In this document: positions 4,568 through 37,204 of the stretch, piece after piece
Layout: each line of letters opens with the position of its first letter
Position numbering within the stretch: position 1 is the stretch's first letter
From: a virus
UHGV virus genome: UHGV-0198113
DNA length: 39,138 nucleotides
Reading direction: 5' to 3' (one strand)
Program-made: the position numbers and the translations under genes
The notes under the pieces: model-generated
What the model saw: only the letters and a program-made list of their open reading frames with translations
Databases searched by the model: none
Told to the model about the DNA's origin: nothing

Positions 4568-7500
4568 CTAAGTGCGATCCCCTAACTGTTTACCGTTAAG
4601 TTCACGTTTCAGTACAGCTAAAATCCATTTCCACGCTTTGCTCGTGATATGGTACGGATTACGCTTTGTTATCATCACTTGTTCATCGCCGGAACGAACT
4701 TCAAAACTTTGCACGTTCAGTTGATCTTGACGAGTATTGGTTTCATCAAAGATTTCTAAATTGCAGCTGAAGTTCAACTCATACCCCTCTGGGTTGTCGC
4801 CCGGCAACTCAAGGACGATATAAAGGTCTTGGCCTGCCCGTAGATCCACGGGAGTTAAGCTTATTGCTTTACCCACATCAGAAGATGTCGACAAAGCAAA
4901 TTCGACGATGTCAGTTGCAGATAAGAAAGCATCTTTCTGTGCATCACCGATAATCACTTTCCCTGGCCAGTTGCTTTTAATCGTTCCCGACACACGCGCG
5001 ATGCGATAATGTGCTTTACTAACGCCCTGTGCGAATCGCAAGATCAAATTTCCACGATGTTTATCTGATGCAGGCGACGTGGTACTCCACGCGTTATTCC
5101 ACGTAGAGTTCTGAGAAACCAAAGCACCGCGAGCTAACTTACGATCGTAGAACTGCGCAGGTAGTTGACCTTCATGCGACAAAGAAGCAACACCTTGTCC
5201 CAGAGGTAAACCTATTGCTTCGGTAAAACGGAACTCAGATTTAATCTCGTACGATGCGGGGTCTATTGCGGTCTGGGCATAATCGGCATCACGAGCATCC
5301 GAAAGCTGACCGATAGAACTATCTACGTACGATTCAAACAAGCCACGCAAGTAATGATACTTATCAATGTCAATATTAGATGTAACCGGGTCTATTAAAC
5401 CATGGCTAATCGTCAAACGACACTTCTCGCTGAGTTCACTAAACGCCAGCCCAACGCCATCGCCAGCAAAATAATCTACCAAATCAAACGGAAGTTGGAA
5501 CTCTACTTGGCGTTGTTTAACCGCTGTTGTGTTAAACTGCGAGAAAGAAAGTGCTAATCGTAAGACACGAGTTTGAACATTATAACGGTAACGTATCATT
5601 CCCCTTGGGGCGTGAACAGGAGAAATCTTATCCTTGCTTACACCCCAACCTAAAAGGTCAAGAATTGCTGGATTAGTTTCATCGCCATTAAATAACACGT
5701 CTTTGGTAGTTGCAGAAACAGCGGTCTCATTTGCTGTTTCCATCAACATCACCCCATCGTTTGTTTCAAACGTTTTGTACCACGTCTCATTAGTACGCAC
5801 CGTACCAACACCCACTTTGCAGGTCTTATCCGTAAGATTAAAACGAACGTATCGACGTCCTACAGAACTACCTTGTGAACTAGCACAGAGTATAAGATCT
5901 GGAGCTGCTGTGAGTGCTTTTGTCCCGCCAACATCATCAACATCAAAAACAAACGACCCTTCGAATGTGGGGGCACTATTTTCTTTAGGGTTGAATGGTG
6001 TAAACCAACAATACGGCGTTGCACCTTCGGTCGAGAAAATTAGCTGTAAAGCAGTTTTAACATTTAGCCCATGCGAATAAGTAAGCAAACCGCGACTCAA
6101 GCTTACAGCAGTCCCGCCACTTCCCGCCGTTAGCATCTTACGATAAACCAACGCACGTGGTTCGGGAATAGCGCGGTTCAATAACGGTAATCTGGGGTTA
6201 TCTGTCAGCGACCAGTCGACCACTTTTAACCCGTGGGCGTTTCGCGTGGTCACATGGTTGCCAATTTCTGCACTTGTACCAAAGTCGAAAGTGGTGTCGA
6301 AAGTTACCGTCTTATTCGCGTAATTTTCGCCTGCGTAAACATCTACGTATCCGATAAAACCGCGCTCAGGATCAACCTGGTTTGATTCGATCGGCTCAGC
6401 ACGAGAATACAGAGAACCTGTGAGCATGTTAACGTAAAGATAATGACGAATCCCAACATGTGTTGTGACGAAATCGGCTAACAACTCTACGTGTGTTTCG
6501 GGACCACTGAAATATACAGGGTAATCACCGTCATATATCTCAAACTGCACCGCAGCTGATTTTGCCGTGTCGCTACATTCCGCTTTTATTGCAACAACAT
6601 AGTTCTCGACGTTTGGTGAAGTTTCGTAAACAGTTAATAATGGCGATTCACCGGAGGCAACTTGCACACCGTTAATGTACACGGTTACGGGGCCACCACC
6701 GGCAGCATAAACCCATAGCTTAGACTGGTACGCTTTGACCCGAGCTTTAGCAAGAACAGTAATTACAGACTGATCACCCATTTGTGTTGCTGTCTTTCCA
6801 ACAGGCACAGAGTGATAGCCCATTAACGGTGGTTCATCAATACCGTCCCAAGTAATTCCTGTTCCTTTGCTAACTTTTGCTTCCGGCCAGGTAGTTTCAA
6901 GCTGGTTATTTGGCGAAAACCAGTTGAACATTGGCGTTGTCTGAAGATCAATTGCACCGGTCAGGGTAGCTTCGTCTTTGTTACCATCAAACAAATAAAA
7001 GACTTTCAGATCCTGTACGGTTAAAGCAGTACCTTGACTATTAAACCGCCACTGCGCACCTTGTACCGCAGCAAAATCTGTTACCGTACCTTCTTTCGCA
7101 TTTGCAATCGCTGCGGCAACAACTTCAAGCCTTGCAGAAAGTTCTTTGAGAATATTAGGCACTACAGCCCGTCCCTCGACTAAGCCATTTTGGTTAGTCG
7201 CATAACGACCTATACCGTAAATGGATTGAGAAGCCTTATAAATGCCTAATTCTGACCACTCGTGATGGTGGTTCTTTTCCGCAAGTCCTTCAACTGCCGT
7301 ACTTAGAGCCGAGGACAGCGGTTTATCAACATCGGCGGTATTGTCAGCATGTTCCAATCCTAACTCTGCTTTGGTAATCTGGCGAGAACCGTCGTTCATC
7401 GCCTTACCGTTTAGCAGCGTCGTTTTCGGCACATACCCGGACAAGTCCGTTGAGTACGGTGTCAGTGACCCCGGTGTTGCTGCAACGCCCGTTGTTTCCG

Positions 7501-20280: not shown

Positions 20281-20736
20281 ATGAAAACTTTTATCGCATT
20301 CTTAGTAACCCTTTTAACTTTCGGTCTCAATAACGCTTACGCCGCAATCGGAAGCTGGGAAGGACTTCAAAGTCCGGGAAATGCTGTTTACGAAATCGAA
20401 GACGAAAATGGGAACAGCTTGTCTATCAACTGCGATACCGCAACGGCTAATCGTAAGTTTTACGGTCGCATGGTTTGGTATTACGGTGAACCGGTCGGTT
20501 CAACTAATGCCGAAGACAACGAAATGAGTATTGTCGTAAACGGCAAAAACTATATCATTCCCACTATTGACGGCAGCGACAAAGCAGAAAAAGCTTGGGT
20601 TGCCTTCGCTAATGCTATCGCTAATGCAAAAAGCTTCGGTGTGGCTATCAACGGTAACGAAGCCGCTAACTTTATTGTAGATGGTGAGCGTCTGCCCGAA
20701 ACTTTCTTTAAGAACTGTGGACATAGCCGTCCTTGA
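20281..20736 (+). CDS. small exported protein with signal peptide (151 aa)
   Basis: Track ORF; AAGGAG RBS; N-terminal hydrophobic signal 'MKTFIAFLVTLLTFGLNNAYAA'; two Cys; paralog of the next gene. Confidence 0.8.
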   Translation: MKTFIAFLVTLLTFGLNNAYAAIGSWEGLQSPGNAVYEIEDENGNSLSINCDTATANRKFYGRMVWYYGEPVGSTNAEDNEMSIVVNGKNYIIPTIDGSDKAEKAWVAFANAIANAKSFGVAINGNEAANFIVDGERLPETFFKNCGHSRP

Positions 20737-20773
20737 TAAATAACTTAATTTTTAAACTAAAAGGAATATAACC

Positions 20774-21244
20774 ATGAAACTGTCTAACATCTTCTTAGCT
20801 ATCGTTTTAACTGTAAGCGCCACTGCTGCACAGGCCATTCCGAACATGTGGGGTAGTGGCTTTGCAATGGGTGAAACCGAGTATGGTATCGATAACGGTG
20901 GATGGGGTATTACCATTAGCTGTACCGGTAATCCAGATGAAAACAACATTTTACCACACAAGATCTTTATCTCTAAAGATGGTAATGTGGTGGCCAACTC
21001 GGAAGATAACGACATTAGTTTCGTTATCGATGGTGAAGAGTTCTGGGGTGTAGTTCCTGACGGCACACGTAATACCGACAATACTTGGGTTAGTTTTGTA
21101 AAAGCAATCTCTACAGCAACTGAGTTTGACTTATACCTCGACCAGAAAAAGGTTGCTACCTTTAACCCATCAGCCAAAAACGTTAAGAAAGTGATGGACG
21201 GTAACTTCCTCGAATCTTGCTGGAACACCGAATACGAACAATAA
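20774..21244 (+). CDS. small exported protein with signal peptide (156 aa), paralog of 20281-20736
   Basis: Track ORF; signal 'MKLSNIFLAIVLTVSATAAQA'; shared segments (I-x-C, SEDN/AEDN, VVNG/VIDG, WV[AS]F, C near the C-terminus). Confidence 0.8.
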   Translation: MKLSNIFLAIVLTVSATAAQAIPNMWGSGFAMGETEYGIDNGGWGITISCTGNPDENNILPHKIFISKDGNVVANSEDNDISFVIDGEEFWGVVPDGTRNTDNTWVSFVKAISTATEFDLYLDQKKVATFNPSAKNVKKVMDGNFLESCWNTEYEQ

Positions 21245-21251
21245 TTACAGG

Positions 21252-21267
21252 AAAAAAAGGGGGGGGG
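21252..21267. repeat. homopolymer tract A7G9 in an intergenic region
   Basis: Direct reading: A run 21252-21258, G run 21259-21267, overlapping a weak hairpin (GGGGAC/GTCCCC) and about 25 nt upstream of the RBS of the next gene. Confidence 0.8.
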
Positions 21268-21304
21268 ACTTCGTGGTCCCCGTTCTATTTAAGGAGTGCG
21301 TGAA

Positions 21305-21691
21305 ATGAATATTAAAACTATACTTTATACTATCATTATTTTCTGCGCTATCGGTATTACCGGTACGTACGCTTTCGGTGAATCGGATATCCGCTACTAC
21401 GACCCAGCACCAGATTCCCCAATTATTAATCCTGATGAAACACCAACACTAATGCGGAGCTTCGGTAAACTAGAGGTGTACCGCCTGATGCGTGACAGTA
21501 CATGCACCGGACTAATCATTGCCGATAACGGCGCACGTGTCTATCAACGTCTAACTGATATTGCTTGCGAACAACCAAAAGTCATGTCGGTTAGTATTCA
21601 CCCGTTATCAGTTGGTAATTATACCGCTGTAGATTTCTTTCATAATGCCGAATTAATCGGTCGTGTTACTTTAAATCGCCCTGCTGAATAA
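21305..21691 (+). CDS. small exported protein with signal peptide (~128 aa)
   Basis: Track ORF 21296-21691 trimmed to the ATG 8 nt after AAGGAG; hydrophobic N-terminus 'MNIKTILYTIIIFCAIGITGTYAFG'; Cys-containing. Confidence 0.7.
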   Translation: MNIKTILYTIIIFCAIGITGTYAFGESDIRYYDPAPDSPIINPDETPTLMRSFGKLEVYRLMRDSTCTGLIIADNGARVYQRLTDIACEQPKVMSVSIHPLSVGNYTAVDFFHNAELIGRVTLNRPAE

Positions 21692-21709
21692 TCTAAAGGA
21701 GTAGTTACG

Positions 21710-22195
21710 ATGAAACGTTTACACACACTGATGTTCTTTCTGGCTTTCATGTTTATCGGTGTTACACCAACTGTTGATGCAGCATCAGTGAAAGATGCGC
21801 TTACATGCGACACCAACGCATGGGACGGACAACCTAACGCGTGTCCAAACATCAACGACGTGTACGATACCGATAAGTCATTTAAAGCGGTTGTTGATAA
21901 AACACTGGACCCGGTAGGATTGAATGGTATGTTCGGTGCTAAAGGTTACATGGATGGCCCCGGCGGTGCGATGTACCCGGTAAACATTAATAACAAAATC
22001 TGGATTGAAAGTGGTGGCTGTAAAGCTAACGCTTGTGGCTGGGAATATATCGTAACGTTATACAACCCACAAACCAACGAACTCGTCGGTTATTACTACA
22101 ACATCGACCCCGGTTACCTGATTTGGTTCGGTGATATCGGTGTTGCTGAATTCGCTTATCTGGTTAAGAAATACGCGGAACAATCTAAATACTAA
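21710..22195 (+). CDS. exported Cys-containing protein (161 aa); possible Ivy-like periplasmic inhibitor
   Basis: Track ORF; AAGGAG RBS; signal 'MKRLHTLMFFLAFMFIGVTPTVDAA'; 'GGCKANACGWEY' is a CKxxxCG loop like the Ivy CKPHDCG motif (from memory). Confidence 0.75.
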   Translation: MKRLHTLMFFLAFMFIGVTPTVDAASVKDALTCDTNAWDGQPNACPNINDVYDTDKSFKAVVDKTLDPVGLNGMFGAKGYMDGPGGAMYPVNINNKIWIESGGCKANACGWEYIVTLYNPQTNELVGYYYNIDPGYLIWFGDIGVAEFAYLVKKYAEQSKY

Positions 22196-22206
22196 GGACG
22201 TTTATC

Positions 22207-22617
22207 ATGAAAAATATCATCAACACGCTTCTCGTTGCGATCGCTGTTCTCTTCACTGCTAACGTGACAGCAAAAACAATAAAATTACCGGATGGTATCA
22301 AATACGTCAACAGTACCGATGATTTCTACTGTACAGAAATCGATGGTTTGTACTGCCAGACGAAGAATCTGTTTAAATACAAAGGTAACAGATACGTATT
22401 CGTTGTTGAGCAAGGCGGTGCCTGGTGCTACGACAGCCCTATGTCGGTACTTAACCTCGAAACGTGGAAAGCCCAACGTCTCGAATACAACGACAAGCGT
22501 CTGTGCTCTGGAAATAACAAACCGTTCTTCCAAGTCGTAGATGGTGTGCCGTGGGTAGGGATATTAGACACCTCTGAAAAATCTATCGTTGTGGCTATGG
22601 ATAAACTTAAAATTTAA
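22207..22617 (+). CDS. small exported protein with signal peptide (136 aa), 4 Cys
   Basis: Track ORF; signal 'MKNIINTLLVAIAVLFTANVTA'; Cys spacing similar to the next gene product. Confidence 0.75.
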   Translation: MKNIINTLLVAIAVLFTANVTAKTIKLPDGIKYVNSTDDFYCTEIDGLYCQTKNLFKYKGNRYVFVVEQGGAWCYDSPMSVLNLETWKAQRLEYNDKRLCSGNNKPFFQVVDGVPWVGILDTSEKSIVVAMDKLKI

Positions 22618-22627
22618 GGAGTAACTC

Positions 22628-23017
22628 ATGCGTTTCATTTGCGCTTTAGCATTCTTCTTCTCTCTGAGCGTAACTGCTTCTACCCAGGTTAACGATTTAC
22701 TGCTGACAGCAAACAACAACGACGATTATCAGTACAATCCACCCAGTTTTGAAGTCTGTGAGAATGGAGAAACAACCTGTCAAGAAGTCGGCGCAGATGG
22801 GCGCTACATTCTGGTGAAAGCCGACGGGGGCGCGATGTGCCCAGCCGGTTACTATTTCCTACTTGATTCTGTCGCAAAAGAGGTTCTTCCTATCACTACG
22901 AAAACGTGCGACCCTACTGTTGTCTTATCGCTTGCTAAAAGCAAATCTCGCGACCGTTACTTAATCGTTATCGAAGAACGCGGTGAGATGGCAGGCGCTA
23001 TCGAATTAGATTACTGA
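22628..23017 (+). CDS. small exported protein with signal peptide (129 aa), 4 Cys
   Basis: Track ORF; AAGGAG RBS; signal 'MRFICALAFFFSLSVTAS'; Cys pattern C-x6-C...C...C. Confidence 0.75.
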   Translation: MRFICALAFFFSLSVTASTQVNDLLLTANNNDDYQYNPPSFEVCENGETTCQEVGADGRYILVKADGGAMCPAGYYFLLDSVAKEVLPITTKTCDPTVVLSLAKSKSRDRYLIVIEERGEMAGAIELDY

Positions 23018-23094: not shown

Positions 23095-23571
23095 ATGCAA
23101 CTGTCTAACGTCTACCAAGCAGCACAATTTCATCATGACCTGTCCGCCAAACCTGAACAGATTCGCCACAACCTGACAGTGGCTTGGAAACTATTACGTA
23201 TTGCAGAAGCTGCTCGTATAGGCGACCAGTCAACAATCATCGACACAGTACGTACATTACATCCTGTCGACCTGGAAACAATTTGGACGTTCGATTTAAC
23301 CCGAATTTATCACCGCCGATTTAATGCAGCCGTTGACGCAATTCGTCCTTATTTCCATTACTTACGGACAACGCGAGAAAGCGATACTGCACTCGAATGG
23401 GTATTGGTACAAAGTGTATGGAGCGACTACATTTATCTCCTTTCTTTAGAGACGGGTGAATGTATCGTTGCTAACGAAGTCTTTTCAAGTAACGCGGAAA
23501 TGTACCGCTCCTACGCAACGATTAAAGGTGAATCCCAGCCTATTTTATCACTCACGCACTTAGGGCTCTAA
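23095..23571 (+). CDS. hypothetical protein (158 aa)
   Basis: Track ORF; AAGGAGA RBS; single-gene unit flanked by terminators. Confidence 0.7.
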   Translation: MQLSNVYQAAQFHHDLSAKPEQIRHNLTVAWKLLRIAEAARIGDQSTIIDTVRTLHPVDLETIWTFDLTRIYHRRFNAAVDAIRPYFHYLRTTRESDTALEWVLVQSVWSDYIYLLSLETGECIVANEVFSSNAEMYRSYATIKGESQPILSLTHLGL

Positions 23572-23580
23572 TTAGCCCGG

Positions 23581-23608
23581 CCCCGACCACGTTCGGGGTT
23601 TCTTTTTT
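23581..23608 (+). terminator. rho-independent terminator
   Basis: CCCCGA/TCGGGG stem followed by TTTCTTTTTT. Confidence 0.55.
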
Positions 23609-24241: not shown

Positions 24242-24290
24242 TGGGAGAACCTTCGGGTTCTCCCATTCGTTTTTATTTTTTTTTCTTTTT
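24242..24290 (+). terminator. rho-independent terminator with C(UUCG)G tetraloop
   Basis: Stem GGGAGAACC/GGTTCTCCC with TTCG loop, followed by a long T-rich tract (TTTTTATTTTTTTTTTCTTTTT). Confidence 0.8.
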
Positions 24291-24320
24291 ACACCACACT
24301 CCGTGATTATGGAGGTGGGT

Positions 24321-26825
24321 ATGCTAAAAGTTGAACGTATTGTACTCAAAGGTTTTACGGGGATGGGATTGCACGAAATTGAAACGTTCGATTTCACTAT
24401 CCAGTCACCGACAACGATTATCCTGGGTGGGAACGGTTGTGGGAAGACCAGTTTACTGTCCGTATTTTTGCCCTTAGCTCCGGCTAAAACAGAATTCAGG
24501 GATGGGGGTTCTTACACGAATTATTGTTTAGTCGGCGATCAACGTTACCGTTTCAAAGTTGCCCGTAAAGGCAACTCGTTGGTTTGCGATATTGAGAATC
24601 TCACTACGGGAACGAAGATTGTCGAGCAAGGTAACGCAAAGGTTTACAATTCACGCGTTGAAGAAATCACTGGTATTACGAAAGAAATTAAAGAATTGTT
24701 AAACGGTGAGGTGTTGTTAACGGACGCGGGAACGGAATTACGTCGTAAATGGTTTTACCGTTTAAGTACCTCTGACCTTACTTACGCGCTAGGGTTCTAT
24801 CAGAGATTGCGGAAAAACCTCACCGTCTTAAACGGTGGCATTGAAATTACCAGTCGTAAGATCGCAGAGTTACGAACACGTGTTATTGAAAATGAAGAAG
24901 AACGTCAACAGTTAGCGGTAAGATTAAAAGGCTTGGAATCGGATTTACGCGAACTGAACCGACAAATCGAACAGCTACCGGGTTTAAATCGTGGCGTTAC
25001 TATCGAATCAATCCAGGCGTTATTAAACGGCTTAGGTCCAACTATCGACGCAATATTACAACATCGTGGTGGTTTGCCTACCGACGAACAGATACTGAAC
25101 GCACGACACAATGAAGCCACAGCACGCGAAGCTGTCGTTTCAGCAGAAACGGAAGTATCAATGTTGAATAAAGATCTGTCGTTATTGATGGACGAGTCAA
25201 CGCGACAGGATTACCTGATGCGCAATCACGAGGGTCTCAAGAACACTCTCGCACGTTTACGTGAAGTGCTTACCAAATGGGACACCGAGCATCTCTTTCC
25301 TGGACTGTTTAGTGAGAGTGCGAATTTAGACCAGCTACGTGCTGCAACCGATGCACGCGTTTGGGGCCAACGACTGGGAACAACACTGGACGCCATTCAT
25401 TCAACCGAAAAGCTCAACGTTTTGGAAGAACGTCTACTGGTGATGGATCAGAAGACCGCAGGATTGCGAGATAGACTCCAGCGCGTAGAGAATGTTTTAC
25501 AAAACTTGAACCACGAACGAAATCACTATCTGGAAACAGCAGAAGTAGATTGCCCGCAATGTCGGTTTAAATTTCGACCTGGGGTTACGCGTTCTTTGTC
25601 TGAACTTGAAACCTCGATTAGAGGCCAACAGCAACAACGTACGGAGCTTCAAACACAGTTAGACAGTATATTACGCGATCGTGTCGAACTGGAATCTGAT
25701 GTAACGTATATGCGTCAGGTTCGTGAAATCGTGTTGACGTACTCAAAGGACCCGGTTTTAAGCATGTTCTTTAAGTGTCTACAAGAACGTAATGTCTTTA
25801 CAGAATCACGCGAACAGTTCGGAAGTCTCTGCGCGGCTTTTGACAGTGAGCTGTATTCTGCTATTGAATATCATGAAACCCGTCAACGGTTAGTGAAGGC
25901 AGAAAAAGAATGGCAAGATGCGGTAGCTGCTGTGGGTAACGTCGATGGTGCTTTACAACAGAAAATTGCTTTCCAACAATCGCGTTTAGGTAAAGCCACA
26001 GAAACGCTCTCAGTGCGTCGTAGAGAGCACGAGTTAGCTAATACGACACTTACCTATCTAGAGAGCGTTAAACGTGCTATAGACGATTTTAGCGCGTTAT
26101 TCGAACGGTTAGAGAATGACGTTAAGGTTACTTTGACAAACACAGTTGTCGAAGAACTCTTACGGGCACGAGAAGGGAAACTGGATGCGTTTACGACAGC
26201 ACGTGAGCGTTATCGTCAAATGGAAAGTGAACTGAATCAGCTCAATACGTTGGAACGCGAACTTGCGGATTTACAAGCCCAGCAGTTTAATAACAAATTG
26301 ATGATTCAGGCGTTCTCGCCAGAAAAAGGTGTACTCAGAAAGTATTTTTACAATGCTATCGTCAGAATCACAGAGTTAATGACGCGCTATATCGAACAAG
26401 TCTGGACGTACCCCATGCGAGTTATGCCTTGTGATCTCACCGACGGTGATTTGGATTATACTTTTCCTGTCCAACTAAAAACACATCCTGAACCCGTTCC
26501 TGATGTGCGTAAAGGGTCTAAGGCACAACGTGCTATATTCAATCTGATGTTCAGACTGACTGCGTATAAAGCGTTGAAATTACATCAGTTTCCTTTGCTA
26601 TTGGATGAACCCTCAGAGGGTATGGACGAAGAACACCGTAATAACCTGGTTGGTTTTATTAAAACGTTAGCAAACTCAGGGGAGTTCTCGCAGTTACTGG
26701 TGGTCTCCCACGAAGCTGAAGTCCATTCTAAACTTAACGAAGCATCGTACTGTGTCATTGAACCGGAAGGGGTGACATTACCTGCGGTGTATAACGAGGG
26801 AGTAAAAATTGTTTATGCAAACTGA
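24321..26825 (+). CDS. Rad50/SbcC-like SMC-family ATPase with coiled coil and CxxC zinc hook (~834 aa)
   Basis: Track ORF 24303-26825 trimmed to the ATG 5 nt after GGAGG. Walker A 'GGNGCGKTSLL'; mid-protein 'CPQC' hook within predicted coiled coil; C-terminal Walker B/D-loop 'LLLDEPSEGMDEE' and 'LLVVSHE'. Confidence 0.8.
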   Translation: MLKVERIVLKGFTGMGLHEIETFDFTIQSPTTIILGGNGCGKTSLLSVFLPLAPAKTEFRDGGSYTNYCLVGDQRYRFKVARKGNSLVCDIENLTTGTKIVEQGNAKVYNSRVEEITGITKEIKELLNGEVLLTDAGTELRRKWFYRLSTSDLTYALGFYQRLRKNLTVLNGGIEITSRKIAELRTRVIENEEERQQLAVRLKGLESDLRELNRQIEQLPGLNRGVTIESIQALLNGLGPTIDAILQHRGGLPTDEQILNARHNEATAREAVVSAETEVSMLNKDLSLLMDESTRQDYLMRNHEGLKNTLARLREVLTKWDTEHLFPGLFSESANLDQLRAATDARVWGQRLGTTLDAIHSTEKLNVLEERLLVMDQKTAGLRDRLQRVENVLQNLNHERNHYLETAEVDCPQCRFKFRPGVTRSLSELETSIRGQQQQRTELQTQLDSILRDRVELESDVTYMRQVREIVLTYSKDPVLSMFFKCLQERNVFTESREQFGSLCAAFDSELYSAIEYHETRQRLVKAEKEWQDAVAAVGNVDGALQQKIAFQQSRLGKATETLSVRRREHELANTTLTYLESVKRAIDDFSALFERLENDVKVTLTNTVVEELLRAREGKLDAFTTARERYRQMESELNQLNTLERELADLQAQQFNNKLMIQAFSPEKGVLRKYFYNAIVRITELMTRYIEQVWTYPMRVMPCDLTDGDLDYTFPVQLKTHPEPVPDVRKGSKAQRAIFNLMFRLTAYKALKLHQFPLLLDEPSEGMDEEHRNNLVGFIKTLANSGEFSQLLVVSHEAEVHSKLNEASYCVIEPEGVTLPAVYNEGVKIVYAN

Positions 26826-26994
26826 TTGGTTCCGTCGTTCGATGAGCGCGGCGGGATTTGGCTTTATGGTCATTTTGGCAATACTTTACGTCATGTTTTG
26901 CGTGGTAATGATTTTATGGGTAGTTTCATCGTATTCGATTAAACTATTCTGGGGTTCGATTTGGCGTCAACGCGAATGCGAGTGGCGGAATTAG
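26815..26994 (+). CDS. small hydrophobic membrane peptide (~59 aa)
   Basis: Track ORF 26809-26994 trimmed to first ATG; TM segment 'FGFMVILAILYVMFCVVMILWVV'; overlaps the end of the ATPase gene (possible coupling); weak RBS. Confidence 0.4.
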   Translation: MQTDWFRRSMSAAGFGFMVILAILYVMFCVVMILWVVSSYSIKLFWGSIWRQRECEWRN

Positions 26995-27005
26995 GAGAGG
27001 GAATT

Positions 27006-27116
27006 ATGATTGAAGGGGTTCTGCTAACGCTAGGTGCGTTGTGGTTGATCGGTAAAGGTTTAAACTGGTTAATTAAACGACACGGCTGGGCGTTCGAAGG
27101 TTCGACATTCAAATAA
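27006..27116 (+). CDS. small membrane peptide (36 aa)
   Basis: Not in track (under 60 aa). AGGAGAGGG RBS 6 nt upstream; 'MIEGVLLTLGALWLIGKGLNWLIKRHGWAFEGSTFK'; followed by hairpin GTACCCTC/GAGGGTAC. Confidence 0.4.
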   Translation: MIEGVLLTLGALWLIGKGLNWLIKRHGWAFEGSTFK

Positions 27117-27163
27117 TCCAGAACGTACCCTCTGTAAGGAGGGTACTAACAGGAACAGAAAAG

Positions 27164-27292
27164 ATGACCTCGATAAATACTACGAATGCGGCGATCTCTG
27201 CATTATACGATGCGGAGCTTACATGGGGCGGGATGCTAATTACCGCCGCCATATTAGCCGCCGCAGCATTCGTCATTGCGCGTTGGTTTTAA
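27164..27292 (+). CDS. small membrane peptide (42 aa)
   Basis: Not in track. 'MTSINTTNAAISALYDAELTWGGMLITAAILAAAAFVIARWF' has a C-terminal TM helix; weak RBS; followed by a T-rich tract. Confidence 0.35.
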   Translation: MTSINTTNAAISALYDAELTWGGMLITAAILAAAAFVIARWF

Positions 27293-34946: not shown

Positions 34947-35681
34947 ATGACTTATCCAAAAATCGTTCAGCCGTATACCCCAACTCTGGTTATTGGTGCT
35001 GATGCAGAAACCAAATCATTACGTCCTGATGCTTATTTGTTAAGCGCGGGATTAGTGGCTTTTGACGTCCCTACGTTGAAAATGGTGGGGTCCTCGTATA
35101 TTCGTATCGACCCTAACGATCCTAAAGCAAAAGCAATTTTCCACGAAGACCCGCAAACTGTTGGATGGTGGGAAGGTAAAGGTGAACCAGAATACGCACC
35201 GTCTCGTGAAGCGTATGAAGAAGCCTGGGGTGGGACGACAGCGTTGCCTGATGCGTTGTGGGCAATGCAGAAGTGGCTCGGAGAAATCACCGCAAAACAC
35301 GAATTTGTTATTACCATGCGCGGCCCTGATTTCGATGCGCCGATTTTCATGAACGCGTTTGCACAATGCGATATTCCACCAGGGAAATTCCGTAAGTTCA
35401 GTGCACTGGATAGCGATCGTACCGCAGAACGTTTAGCATTTGCGTTTGGTTTCGAGCCTGATTTAACCGTAGAGCAAGTTTACTGGACACGCGGTAAACC
35501 GGCTTTTGAACACCACGCTATGTGGGATGCGGCAAAAGAAGCCTACACCACGGCACGTATTTATCACCTCGCTTTGGTCACCCGTGAATACGGGTTTGAA
35601 CGTGCCAAAGCCTGTCACGAAGAACTGAAAACCGGCGAGTATATTGCGCCACAGATTCGTGATCAATTAACCAGGGATTAA
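34947..35681 (+). CDS. DEDDh-type (DnaQ-like) 3'-5' exonuclease (244 aa)
   Basis: Track ORF; GGAG RBS; Exo I 'LVIGADAET', Exo II 'RGPDFDAPIF', Exo III 'EHHAMWDAAKEAY' (H-x4-D). Confidence 0.7.
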   Translation: MTYPKIVQPYTPTLVIGADAETKSLRPDAYLLSAGLVAFDVPTLKMVGSSYIRIDPNDPKAKAIFHEDPQTVGWWEGKGEPEYAPSREAYEEAWGGTTALPDALWAMQKWLGEITAKHEFVITMRGPDFDAPIFMNAFAQCDIPPGKFRKFSALDSDRTAERLAFAFGFEPDLTVEQVYWTRGKPAFEHHAMWDAAKEAYTTARIYHLALVTREYGFERAKACHEELKTGEYIAPQIRDQLTRD

Positions 35682-35683
35682 GA

Positions 35684-37204
35684 ATGAAGAATGTTGATGT
35701 TGCTGTAATTTACACGGACGGTAGCCATTTGACTTCCCCGCTCGGTACAGGAGCGGGGATTCATGGGTACTTATTTAATCGTGAAGTGATTGAGGATGGT
35801 CGGGTTTACCGCCATCCCTCTATTCCCGAGGGGATTACGACGTCGGGATACCGCCAGATAAACAAGGATGAAAAACTCCCTCCTTTGCCAGAAACCGTGG
35901 AGTTTATTGACGGCGTTGTTCCTGTACCAAAAATGTCACATTCTGACGTTGCAGAACTCGTGGCTTTTCTAACTGTTTTCGAACACGCGCCCTTCGTTGC
36001 GAAAAACTATGTTATCTATATCGACGCTTCTTACGTTGTTAACACGTATAACGATTGGATTGATGGTTGGGCAGCACGAGGATGGCGTCGTGCAGACGGT
36101 ACACCCATTGCGAACTTGGAACTAATCCAACGGATGTGGGAAGTCAAACAGCGGTTAAAGAAAGAAGGGAAGGGTATCCGTGTCCTTAAAATTAAAGGTC
36201 ACTCAGGTCGTTATGGAAATGAACGTGCAGACGAACTAGCACGGAAAGGTTCAAGTATCTCTGCGCGTGGCGAAGGGTTAGACTATACACCGTATTGGTC
36301 AAAAGACGAGATGCCTGAAGAAGATCAGCAACCGGAAGTTGTTGGTGAAGGCGTCAATTTATCTGCATTCCCTGAAATCTGCGTCACGAAGTTTTGTTAC
36401 CCGATGGTAAATGAACCACACCCCACGGTTACTGTAAACGGTGAGAAACTGTATTACATGTTTGGCGGGAACCACGCAAAACAGAAAGACGATATTGTCT
36501 TCGTCGGGAAATACATCCCTGATGCGCAGTTCTGCGTGATGTTTACCAAAGAACCGTGGACTAACGTATACGAGTTAGTAAACACCCACTCTGCAAAAGC
36601 ATGGGAAGGTGTACCACGTTTACGTCAGTTTGATCCCATCGCAGTGGTTTTTAACTTATTCGTAAAACGTAAGAAGTTTGCAGAAGCCGCAGGTAACGGT
36701 ATCCCTATCGACAGAATGCACTTTAGCGAAGACAAAAACTTGTGGATGTTTGAAGATCTTTCGATTACACGAATTCTTCGTCCTGCGTTATTGTCTTATC
36801 GCTGCATTGCAATTCGTGATGAACTTGCAGGTTGGTTACGTGATGCAATGGAGCAGAAAAACTCGGTAGTGTTAAACGATATTACCGACATGCTTTACGA
36901 TGAGAAAGGTAAACCGAAGAAAGACTTTTATCGTAACGTAGATAAAGGTTTTGATGTAACTATCCATATCCCTGGAAGCAAAAACAAGGTTAAAGCCATC
37001 CTTACTCGTGGTATCGATGTTCCAACACGTACGGAAATTAACCGCTTAAAAGAACCCGAAGGTCGTTTTTACGTGGCTGTCCGTCGTCCAGAACGTCAGT
37101 ATATCGAGTATGCATTGGTTTATATCGGGGAAAAATATCATGGATTGTGGTGCGGTTATTATTCAAACAAACGAATATTGACAGATAAGGAGCTTGAATG
37201 CTAG
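35684..37204 (+). CDS. RNase HI-like domain (N-terminal ~195 aa) fused to a ~310-aa C-terminal domain of unknown function
   Basis: Track ORF; motifs in order matching E. coli RNase HI catalytic residues: 'VIYTDGS' (D), 'VAELVAF' (E), 'YIDASYV' (D), 'KGHSGRYGNERADELAR' (H, D). Confidence 0.8.
   Translation: MKNVDVAVIYTDGSHLTSPLGTGAGIHGYLFNREVIEDGRVYRHPSIPEGITTSGYRQINKDEKLPPLPETVEFIDGVVPVPKMSHSDVAELVAFLTVFEHAPFVAKNYVIYIDASYVVNTYNDWIDGWAARGWRRADGTPIANLELIQRMWEVKQRLKKEGKGIRVLKIKGHSGRYGNERADELARKGSSISARGEGLDYTPYWSKDEMPEEDQQPEVVGEGVNLSAFPEICVTKFCYPMVNEPHPTVTVNGEKLYYMFGGNHAKQKDDIVFVGKYIPDAQFCVMFTKEPWTNVYELVNTHSAKAWEGVPRLRQFDPIAVVFNLFVKRKKFAEAAGNGIPIDRMHFSEDKNLWMFEDLSITRILRPALLSYRCIAIRDELAGWLRDAMEQKNSVVLNDITDMLYDEKGKPKKDFYRNVDKGFDVTIHIPGSKNKVKAILTRGIDVPTRTEINRLKEPEGRFYVAVRRPERQYIEYALVYIGEKYHGLWCGYYSNKRILTDKELEC

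Follow-up and report, generated by a model that had tools for sequence, protein, structure and literature searches.

The DNA analysed here (the window) is a single strand of 39,138 nt from the viral genome UHGV-0198113. Between positions 24,242 and 27,292, it carries an ORF for an 834-aa ATPase, followed by three micro-ORFs (A, B and C) and accompanied by two hairpins. The features of this locus are the following:

24242..24265, plus strand: terminator-like hairpin with a 10-bp stem, a TTCG loop and a T-rich tail, located between the upstream gene and the ATPase ORF
24311..24315, plus strand: Shine-Dalgarno sequence GGAGG, 5 nt upstream of the ATPase ATG
24321..26825, plus strand: SbcC/Rad50-like ABC ATPase ORF, 834 aa (phrog_77, E=1.7e-90; AF2 model; Foldseek)
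24426..24449, plus strand: Walker A/P-loop GGNGCGKT, residues 36-43 (GGNGCGKTS, residues 36-44)
25551..25562, plus strand: CPQC zinc-hook motif, residues 411-414
26514..26528, plus strand: variant ABC signature motif GSKAQ, residues 732-736
26595..26609, plus strand: Walker B motif LLLDE, residues 759-763 (LLLDEP, residues 759-764)
26706..26711, plus strand: H-loop Ser-His, residues 796-797 (within VVSHE, residues 794-798)
26809..26994, plus strand: micro-ORF A, small membrane protein of 61 aa when read from a conserved TTG
27006..27116, plus strand: micro-ORF B, membrane or amphipathic peptide of 36 aa (phrog_13448, E=1.5e-13)
27125..27146, plus strand: conserved 9-bp hairpin lacking a U-tract, between ORF B and ORF C
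27164..27292, plus strand: micro-ORF C, 42-aa peptide with a C-terminal transmembrane segment, homologous to a 43-aa ORF of SPN3US (ACQ60_gp077)

A GTG at position 24303 was rejected as the start codon of the ATPase because every homologue begins with MLKVERI. The Walker A, CPQC, LLLDEP and VVSHE motifs, which an earlier note had read from the letters of the sequence, were all recovered where it had placed them. Residues G36, N38, G39, G41 and K42 of Walker A are invariant among 15 close and 5 distant homologues, as are D762 and E763 of Walker B and S796 and H797 of the H-loop in the homologues compared. CPQC is the sole CxxC motif in the protein; its cysteines (C411 and C414), which are predicted to form a zinc hook, are retained in homologues with as little as 21% identity. 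In place of the canonical SGGQ/E, the signature motif reads SKAQ; in Chaetomium thermophilum Rad50, it is aligned to CSAGQ, and its serine (S733) is invariant across the whole family. A Q-loop glutamine was not identified in the protein. Walker A, the CxxC motif, the signature serine, Walker B and the H-loop are all preserved as far out as phiKZ gp165 and the homologues in Goslar, PCH45 and RSL2. A chance origin of the motifs was dismissed because Walker A, CxxC, Walker B and the H-loop remain invariant down to 21% identity. The hairpin at 24242..24265 is probably the boundary at which a new transcription unit begins. A scan for sigma-70 promoters was uninformative (7 sites, with 8.2 expected); nucleus-forming jumbo phages transcribe their genes with their own RNA polymerases.

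Both subunits of the putative complex discussed below were identified using PHROGs, conserved motifs and fold prediction, since Pfam barely recognises either of them: for the 834-aa protein, it returned SMC_N at 34.6 bits, below the cut-off of 40. The protein matches phrog_77 ('SbcC-like'), and its top sequence matches in the PDB are the Rad50 heads 5da9 and 3qkt. In the AF2 model (pLDDT 82.6), N- and C-terminal head lobes are connected by two long helical arms (residues 154-405 and 426-694, with short breaks), which are predicted to form a long antiparallel coiled coil. CPQC lies at its apex, in a loop (residues 406-425) joining the predicted helices 365-405 and 426-474. The top Foldseek match in the PDB is full-length C. 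thermophilum Rad50 (7zr1, E=1.6e-19). The protein thus combines a bipartite ABC head, whose key residues are invariant in 20 homologues and whose signature is a variant one, with a predicted coiled coil and a CxxC apex, and this apex is a loop of ~20 residues rather than the globular hinge domain of SMC proteins proper. The adjacent sbcD-sbcC operon that is typical of Rad50/SbcC, albeit not strictly defining, is absent here. Motifs and the predicted fold therefore support the assignment made in the earlier note, a Rad50/SbcC-type ATPase with a predicted zinc hook, and the protein is referred to as SbcC in the following.

Megablast searches of phage and plasmid sequences with this region gave no match, which made searches at the protein level necessary; viral_contigs, scanned for exact 41-mers, gave none either. 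The window is syntenic with gp188-gp228 of Erwinia phage Asesino, and its SbcC is 70.9% identical to Asesino gp207. An identical SbcC is encoded on the NCBI contig ABDPLV010000003.1 of GCA_020703495.1 (223,321 bp). When SbcC was used as a tblastn query, matches with 100% coverage were obtained in Erskinevirus, Seoulvirus and Machinavirus, and matches were still detectable in phiKZ, Goslar, PCH45 and RSL2. Judged by these similarities, the window belongs to a jumbo phage of the Chimalliviridae (phiKZ-like, nucleus-forming), and its SbcC is orthologous to SPN3US gp186, phiKZ gp165 and Asesino gp207. The gene shows the full-length orthology and conserved neighbourhood of a core gene of this family, which is present in every nucleus-forming jumbo phage, and, according to the literature on its homologues, is essential in SPN3US and phiKZ. 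SPN3US gp186 was named the SbcC subunit and found to be essential by amber mutation (Thomas et al. 2016, PMC5105663). For phiKZ orf165, core-gene status and a knock-down phenotype have been reported (PMC12571901), and no transposon insertions were recovered (PMC12676376).

The earlier note had found no Mre11/SbcD gene near the ATPase, and this proved correct for the whole window: the best tblastn hit with SPN3US SbcD had an E-value of 20, and the GD.. plus GNH-type motif pair was absent from every stop-to-stop frame of at least 80 aa. The genes flanking SbcC encode a phrog_9964 protein (function unassigned in PHROGs) and an acetyltransferase. A 244-aa 'endodeoxyribonuclease' (34947-35681) was considered as a hidden partner and rejected, being an Rv2179c-like 3'-5' exonuclease of the DEDD type and not a metallophosphoesterase. 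In the relatives, SbcD-like genes are found at a distance. Searches with SbcC matched 289 phage records and searches with SbcD 290, with the same distribution over genera, and the two genes lie apart in all Chimalliviridae examined. They are separated by ~148 kb in Asesino and ~147 kb in SPN3US, whose gp27 was named SbcD and whose SbcC and SbcD genes were described as 'drastically separated' (PMC5105663). On two IMG/VR contigs encoding a 96% identical SbcC, an SbcD-like gene is located on the same contig at 87-131 kb, and SbcC and an SbcD-like gene also share a contig where SbcC is 87% identical. The identification of the SbcD-like proteins follows from PHROGs (phrog_100, E=1e-64 to 1e-69) and from phosphoesterase motifs that are invariant among the relatives, with motif III reading GTPSHD rather than GNHD/E; Pfam Metallophos scored 15-18.5 bits (cut-off 21.5) on the proteins of this clade, and a PDB sequence search with one of them gave no match. 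Distances of 87-148 kb on the same genome in relatives argue for the possibility, raised in the earlier note, that the partner is encoded elsewhere. The SbcC of this phage would thus only look orphaned, because its relatives carry the partner nuclease gene about 90-150 kb away, and those with a 96% identical SbcC suggest that an SbcD gene is also present on its own genome.

The three micro-ORFs of 59, 36 and 42 aa described in the earlier note were confirmed, including the overlap of the first with the SbcC stop codon. ORF A can start at an ATG (26815-26994, 59 aa) or at the TTG that is conserved in relatives; its start falls within the final 17 nt of SbcC. Each micro-ORF contains a hydrophobic stretch, consistent with the transmembrane character proposed for it, with maximal 19-residue Kyte-Doolittle means of 3.09 (ORF A), 1.61 (ORF B) and 2.12 (ORF C). 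ORF A is a homologue of SPN3US 'gp187' with a weak match to phrog_16515, and it shares a conserved Y-x-x-F-C motif and a C-terminal C-E-W-R. It was found in 8/8 phages compared, representing three genera, and in two metagenomic relatives, in all of which its start overlaps or abuts the SbcC stop codon. SbcC and ORF A are transcribed together, and the translation of ORF A is probably coupled to that of SbcC. ORF B follows a GGAG-type ribosome-binding site, and tblastn recovered it in 36 phage records, ~180 nt downstream of SbcC. Homologues of ORF C were identified in SPN3US, SPAsTU and pEa_SNUABM_29. In-frame dN/dS values were 0.16-0.26 for ORF A, 0.18-0.38 for ORF B (where computable) and 0.08-0.20 for ORF C, compared with about 0.6-5.7 in shifted frames, and five of the six shifted-frame readings contain stops. 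From their conservation, the micro-ORFs are judged to be genuine small membrane-protein genes. They belong to a cassette that is specific to the Erskinevirus/Seoulvirus/Machinavirus clade and varies in composition, with at most five families of small membrane proteins; families D and E are absent from the window, and family C is absent from Asesino. A co-directional small transmembrane ORF downstream of SbcC is missing in phiKZ, Goslar, PCH45, RSL2 and Vibrio phage pVp-JHP1101, where the proteins neighbouring SbcC are not hydrophobic. The genomic context highlighted in the earlier note therefore holds in that these genes are real and conserved, but their connection with the ATPase is confined to a single clade.

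Taken as a whole, the locus is very probably explained by an SbcC subunit of a phage SbcCD complex, a distant SbcD gene and accessory micro-ORFs. SbcC would supply the Rad50-type ATPase of an Mre11-Rad50-like complex encoded by the phage itself, and the gene for SbcD, the Mre11-type phosphoesterase, would lie far off on the same ~220-250 kb genome because Chimalliviridae scatter functionally linked genes. By analogy to T4 gp46/gp47 and E. coli SbcCD, SbcC may dimerise via the CxxC zinc hook and via heads that engage each other in an ATP-driven manner; with a dimer of SbcD, this pair would bind DNA at ends or hairpins and resect it. The resected DNA could provide substrates for the phage UvsX recombinase, and the complex would in this way serve recombination-dependent replication as well as repair of the genome. 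That the two proteins form a complex, that it has nuclease activity and that it acts in recombination are all modelled on these systems; a literature search returned no published assay of any Chimalliviridae SbcCD.

A Rad50-like ATPase that truly lacks an Mre11-type nuclease and acts, for instance, in organising the genome as SMC proteins do or in a conflict system of the Lamassu/Wadjet kind could account for the lack of such a nuclease gene in the 39 kb of the window, for the sub-threshold SMC_N match and for lower-ranking Foldseek matches to Smc5/6, condensin, MukB, LmuB and JetC (1e-18 to 1e-9). This reading is extremely improbable: an SbcD-like gene accompanies SbcC in essentially every relative (289/290 genomes), on the same contigs in the closest ones, Rad50 is the top-ranked match in sequence as well as in fold, the apex carries a CxxC hook instead of an SMC hinge, and SbcC is an essential core gene rather than an accessory one. 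The 'orphan' label of the earlier note is hence not supported, nor is its alternative that the ATPase works in a different context, and the premise that SbcC must adjoin SbcD does not apply to Chimalliviridae, as published in 2016 (PMC5105663). It is very unlikely that the micro-ORFs arose as spurious open frames in a spacer between genes. Gene callers do often skip them, leaving ORF B out of the Asesino and SPN3US records and all three ORFs uncalled on contigs with an identical SbcC, but the purifying selection on their reading frames, the ribosome-binding site of ORF B, the PHROG families of ORFs A and B and protein-level homologues in phages whose SbcC is just 52-60% identical all speak against it.

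With the micro-ORFs accepted as genes, they could be SbcC partners, chiefly ORF A, that tether or regulate SbcCD at a membrane, an idea raised by Thomas et al. (PMC5105663), who described the small transmembrane protein gene immediately downstream of SPN3US SbcC, and reminiscent of T4 gp47.1, for which such a role with gp46/47 was once proposed. The constant junction of ORF A with SbcC and the fixed distance of ORF B would fit a partnership, yet this proposal is unlikely to be correct, given the variable composition of the cassette and the phages that possess SbcC without it. Phage DNA in Chimalliviridae replicates within a protein shell, apart from membranes, which also weighs against a tether, and a literature search found neither expression data nor any experimental follow-up on SPN3US gp187. 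An obligatory functional link of the cassette to SbcC is unlikely because the cassette is missing from phiKZ, Goslar, PCH45, RSL2 and the Vibrio relative; the micro-ORFs are most likely accessory genes and not obligatory SbcC partners. The narrower proposal that ORF A, perhaps with ORF B, recruits or regulates SbcCD at the membrane within the Erskinevirus/Seoulvirus/Machinavirus clade is distinctly doubtful. Candidates for this membrane are the cell envelope and the early lipid vesicle enclosing the injected genome, and such a tether would couple the processing of DNA ends to a membrane-associated step in the life cycle of these nucleus-forming phages.

Among the closest known systems is that of SPN3US: its gp186 is 58.5% identical over 834 aa, with about equal length, its SbcD is similarly remote, and ORFs A, B and C follow SbcC. 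It differs by two extra small membrane ORFs, a 2-TM family (D) and an '...ALTQGWF' family (E). phiKZ gp165 shares the architecture, the invariant Walker A, CxxC, Walker B and H-loop motifs and a non-adjacent SbcD, whereas its identity to SbcC is ~23-25% and its gene is neighboured by a hydrophilic 58-aa ORF on the opposite strand instead of small transmembrane ORFs. T4 gp46/gp47 form the same kind of complex, presumably with the same role in recombination-dependent replication, and have small ORFs nearby, including that for the transmembrane protein gp47.1 (as cited in PMC5105663). Unlike in the phage family considered here, the T4 genes are clustered; gp46 is a much shorter protein (63.6 kDa), with a coiled coil ~300 residues shorter, and shows no BLASTP-detectable similarity to the SPN3US orthologue (PMC5105663). 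E. coli SbcCD and the archaeal and eukaryotic Mre11-Rad50 complexes have the same bipartite ABC head, antiparallel coiled coil and CxxC zinc hook, and among PDB entries Rad50 matches SbcC best in both sequence and fold. The cellular genes differ in forming an sbcDC operon; the phage protein has the signature SKAQ and a sequence identity of ~10-13%, and motif III of the SbcD-like proteins of its relatives reads GTPSHD in place of GNHD/E.

The split of SbcC and SbcD, the essentiality of SbcC and the downstream small transmembrane gene are known from the 2016 study of SPN3US (PMC5105663), and later work confirmed that phiKZ orf165 is a core gene (PMC12571901). The value of the locus as a discovery is accordingly small, the arrangement having been described before in close relatives. 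It offers a lesson for annotation, in that a missing neighbouring partner gene in Chimalliviridae is not evidence of orphan function. Two modest additions are the recognition of the downstream small ORFs as a conserved, variable cassette under purifying selection and the finding that several of its members, notably ORF B, are absent from reference annotations.

A run of A residues just before the TTG of ORF A was considered as a site of programmed +1 frameshifting that would fuse SbcC to ORF A. This was rejected because the ORF A frame contains a stop two codons upstream of the TTG, because SPN3US and Huxley do not preserve the slippery run and because each ORF A homologue has its own start codon. 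The hairpin between ORF B and ORF C has a free energy of -17.7 kcal/mol (z=-4.7), and its stem is maintained in relatives by paired changes.

The ATPase gene (SbcC, Rad50/SbcC-like), its motifs and the three micro-ORFs that follow it (ORF A, B and C) were located as follows.

24311-24315, Shine-Dalgarno-type GGAGG, 5 nt before the SbcC ATG
24321-26825, + strand, SbcC ORF, 834 aa
SbcC residues 36-44, Walker A motif GGNGCGKTS
SbcC residues 411-414, CPQC, the sole CxxC of the protein
SbcC residues 759-764, LLLDEP
SbcC residues 794-798, VVSHE
26809/26815-26994, + strand, ORF A, 61 or 59 aa, overlapping the SbcC stop
27006-27116, + strand, ORF B, 36 aa
27164-27292, + strand, ORF C, 42 aa

The GTG at 24303 is not the SbcC start, because GGAGG precedes the ATG and the aligned homologues all begin with MLKVERI. 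The Walker A, CPQC, LLLDEP and VVSHE motifs that the earlier note had claimed for the 834-aa protein were all found in place. Residues G36, N38, G39, G41 and K42 of the Walker A motif, C411, C414, S733, D762, E763, S796 and H797 were invariant in 15 SbcC homologues (30-96% identity) and also in the proteins of phiKZ, Goslar, PCH45, RSL2 and a Vibrio phage (21-33% identity). The ABC signature (residues 732-736) reads SKAQ, as opposed to the usual SGGQ/E, with the serine alone invariant family-wide. No obvious Q-loop glutamine aligned in the N-lobe (residues about 130-145), a region in which (L/F)T is conserved and R141 invariant. These departures may represent family-specific variation of the ATPase site.

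SbcC was assigned to phrog_77 ('SbcC-like subunit of palindrome specific endonuclease', E=1.7e-90) in PHROGs, and a Pfam search returned nothing beyond a sub-threshold SMC_N match. Among solved structures, its best sequence matches were the Rad50 heads of C. thermophilum (5da9) and P. furiosus (3qkt), with the phage GSKAQ aligning onto the CSAGQ signature motif of Rad50. An AlphaFold2 model generated with 15 homologues as input (mean pLDDT 82.6) comprised an N-terminal lobe (1-150), two helical segments (154-405 and 426-694) and a C-terminal lobe, with CPQC in a short apex loop (406-425). A Foldseek search of the PDB with this model gave C. thermophilum Rad50 (7zr1) as the top match (E=1.6e-19), with Smc5/6, condensin, MukB, Lamassu LmuB and Wadjet JetC ranked lower. 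Instead of an SMC hinge, the apex has the form of a hook.

Megablast of the window against GenBank phages gave no match. At the protein level, SbcC matched 289 phage genomes, every one a phiKZ-like jumbo phage; Erwinia phage Asesino gp207 came closest (70.9%), SPN3US-like Salmonella phages ranked next (about 58%), and weaker matches extended to phiKZ PHIKZ165, Goslar, PCH45, RSL2, PhiPA3 and 201phi2-1. Asesino gp188-gp228 is collinear with the window, both sharing the order of acetyltransferase, macro-domain protein, transglycosylase endolysin, exonuclease and RNase H-domain genes. The window is a fragment of a Chimalliviridae genome.

The earlier note's statement that no Mre11/SbcD gene lies near the ATPase held throughout the 39-kb window: tblastn with SPN3US SbcD (gp27) gave a best E-value of 20, and the phosphoesterase motif pair occurred on no long ORF of the window. 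A 244-aa nuclease at 34947-35681, considered as the Mre11-type partner, was ruled out as an Rv2179c-like exonuclease. The note had left open whether the partner is encoded elsewhere or the ATPase acts in a different context; genomes of relatives bear out the former and speak against an orphan ATPase. SbcD and SbcC lie at 21.0-22.2 kb and 168.9-171.4 kb in SPN3US, and at 21.7-22.9 kb (gp44) and 170.9-173.4 kb (gp207) in Asesino. These SbcD-like proteins match phrog_100 ('SbcD-like', E=1e-64 to 1e-69), with sub-threshold Pfam Metallophos scores only. Tblastn with SbcD identified 290 phage records whose genus distribution equals that of the 289 SbcC records. The strongest evidence for a distant partner comes from two IMG/VR contigs with a 96%-identical SbcC that also carry SbcD: UViG_3300045988_113438 (220,786 bp; SbcC at about 151-153 kb, SbcD at about 19-20 kb) and UViG_3300029126_000001 (225,000 bp; SbcC at about 54-56 kb, SbcD at about 143-144 kb). 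A relative with an 87%-identical SbcC likewise has both genes on one contig. The SbcD proteins of these IMG/VR relatives share invariant D-x-H, GDLFxD, GTPSHD, FMHG and HDH motifs. The earlier note's interpretation is partly borne out: the partner is very probably encoded elsewhere in the genome, so that SbcC is not an orphan.

As previously noted, the ATPase is followed by three tiny ORFs, the first overlapping its stop, and each encodes a hydrophobic segment. Comparison of eight phages (window, Asesino, phiEaH2, SPN3US, SPAsTU, pEa_SNUABM_29, Huxley and pSal-SNUABM-04) revealed, in the stretch separating SbcC from the acetyltransferase gene, a cassette of variable content that encodes as many as five families of small membrane proteins.

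Small membrane-protein families between SbcC and the acetyltransferase gene
Family A: 57-66 aa; start within or abutting the SbcC stop; 8/8 phages
Family B: 35-36 aa; membrane or amphipathic peptide; 8/8 phages
Family C: 42-43 aa; 'MTxxNxxNA...W(L)F'; window, SPN3US, SPAsTU, pEa_SNUABM_29
Family D: about 70 aa; two TM segments; not in the window
Family E: 35-39 aa; '...ALTQGWF'; not in the window

ORF B matched phrog_13448 (E=1.5e-13), with homologues about 180 nt 3' of SbcC in 36 phage records. The homologue is annotated in phiEaH2, Huxley, SPAsTU and pEa_SNUABM_29. It is unannotated in Asesino (KX397364.2, 173590-173700; 22695-22805 of locus L001) and SPN3US (NC_027402.1, about 171588-171692), where the next ORF, overlapping its 3' end in another frame, is annotated instead. 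In comparisons with metagenomic relatives whose SbcC is 96% and 87% identical, dN/dS of ORF A-C was 0.08-0.38 in frame and about 0.6-5.7 in shifted frames, with stops in five of the six shifted-frame readings. Conservation places the ORF A start at TTG (26809), 5 nt 3' of GGAG, the ATG at 26815 being missing in several relatives; this arrangement fits translational coupling to SbcC. ORF A, B and C are real genes. No such small ORFs follow SbcC in phiKZ, Goslar, PCH45, RSL2 or Vibrio phage pVp-JHP1101. The linkage is a trait of one clade and not required by SbcC, and a genuine functional connection between SbcC and the membrane is very improbable.

SPN3US gp186 was named an SbcC subunit by Thomas et al. 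2016 and shown to be essential by amber mutation; the gene directly 3' of it encodes gp187, a predicted transmembrane protein of 63 aa that was likened to T4 gp47.1 (PMC5105663). In phiKZ, orf165 is listed in the core genome as an 'SbcC-like nuclease', shows a phenotype on knock-down (PMC12571901) and lacks transposon insertions (PMC12676376). The finding in the window therefore restates a feature described for Chimalliviridae, the split SbcC/SbcD arrangement being already known for close relatives. The motifs, predicted fold, orthology, SbcD co-occurrence and micro-ORF selection come from the present analysis, and the steps of the mechanism are inferred from what is established for Mre11-Rad50, E. 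coli SbcCD and T4 gp46/47. By analogy, SbcC would undergo ATP-driven head engagement and zinc-hook dimerisation and, together with an SbcD dimer, form a nuclease processing DNA ends or hairpins. SbcCD would most plausibly feed recombination-dependent replication and repair in a phage that encodes a UvsX of its own (gp238 in the relative Asesino), which would explain why SbcC is essential.

Strong terminator-like hairpins lie upstream of SbcC at 24242-24265 (both strands; 10-bp stem, TTCG loop, T-rich tails on both strands) and at 23579-23600 (+), after a gene ending at 23571, and suggest that SbcC begins its own transcription unit. Another hairpin (27125-27146, +; 9 bp, GTACCCTCT-GTAA-GGAGGGTAC; -17.7 kcal/mol, z=-4.7) separates ORF B and C and is kept in two relatives via paired changes at the stem ends (locus L016, about 5803-5826; locus L015, about 5806-5827). 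Lacking a U-tract, it does not qualify as a classical intrinsic terminator and may serve as a signal for RNA processing, stability or phage-RNAP termination.

An identical SbcC protein is encoded on a 223,321-bp contig (ABDPLV010000003.1) of NCBI assembly GCA_020703495.1. The matching SbcD cluster (P0052) has 248 members; those with NCBI names belong to assemblies of Salmonella enterica, E. coli and Shigella isolates, where their contigs reach 222-228 kb. This jumbo-phage lineage apparently travels with enterobacterial surveillance isolates, perhaps through pseudolysogeny or a carrier state. The E. coli strain 98232 'plasmid' NZ_CP173450.1 (221,873 bp) shows 74.8% nucleotide identity to the SbcC region at 219693-221739; this RefSeq replicon, classed as a plasmid, probably represents the genome of a related jumbo phage.

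Just 5' of the SbcC unit, six consecutive small genes (20281-23017, +; 129-161 aa) have Asesino counterparts annotated as hypothetical only. Five of them encode a signal-peptide-like N-terminus (e.g. MKTFIAFLVTLLTFGLNNAYA, MKLSNIFLAIVLTVSATAAQA), and in the sixth (21296-21691) a hydrophobic stretch begins after residue 8; from these N-termini, the block looks like one of secreted or periplasmic proteins. At 35684-37204 (+), a 506-aa RNase H-domain protein (phrog_3265, E=1e-169; Pfam RNase_H) resembles, by annotation, phiKZ 155 ('RNase HI domain protein'), which gave one of the strongest knock-down phenotypes of an antisense screen (PMC12571901).
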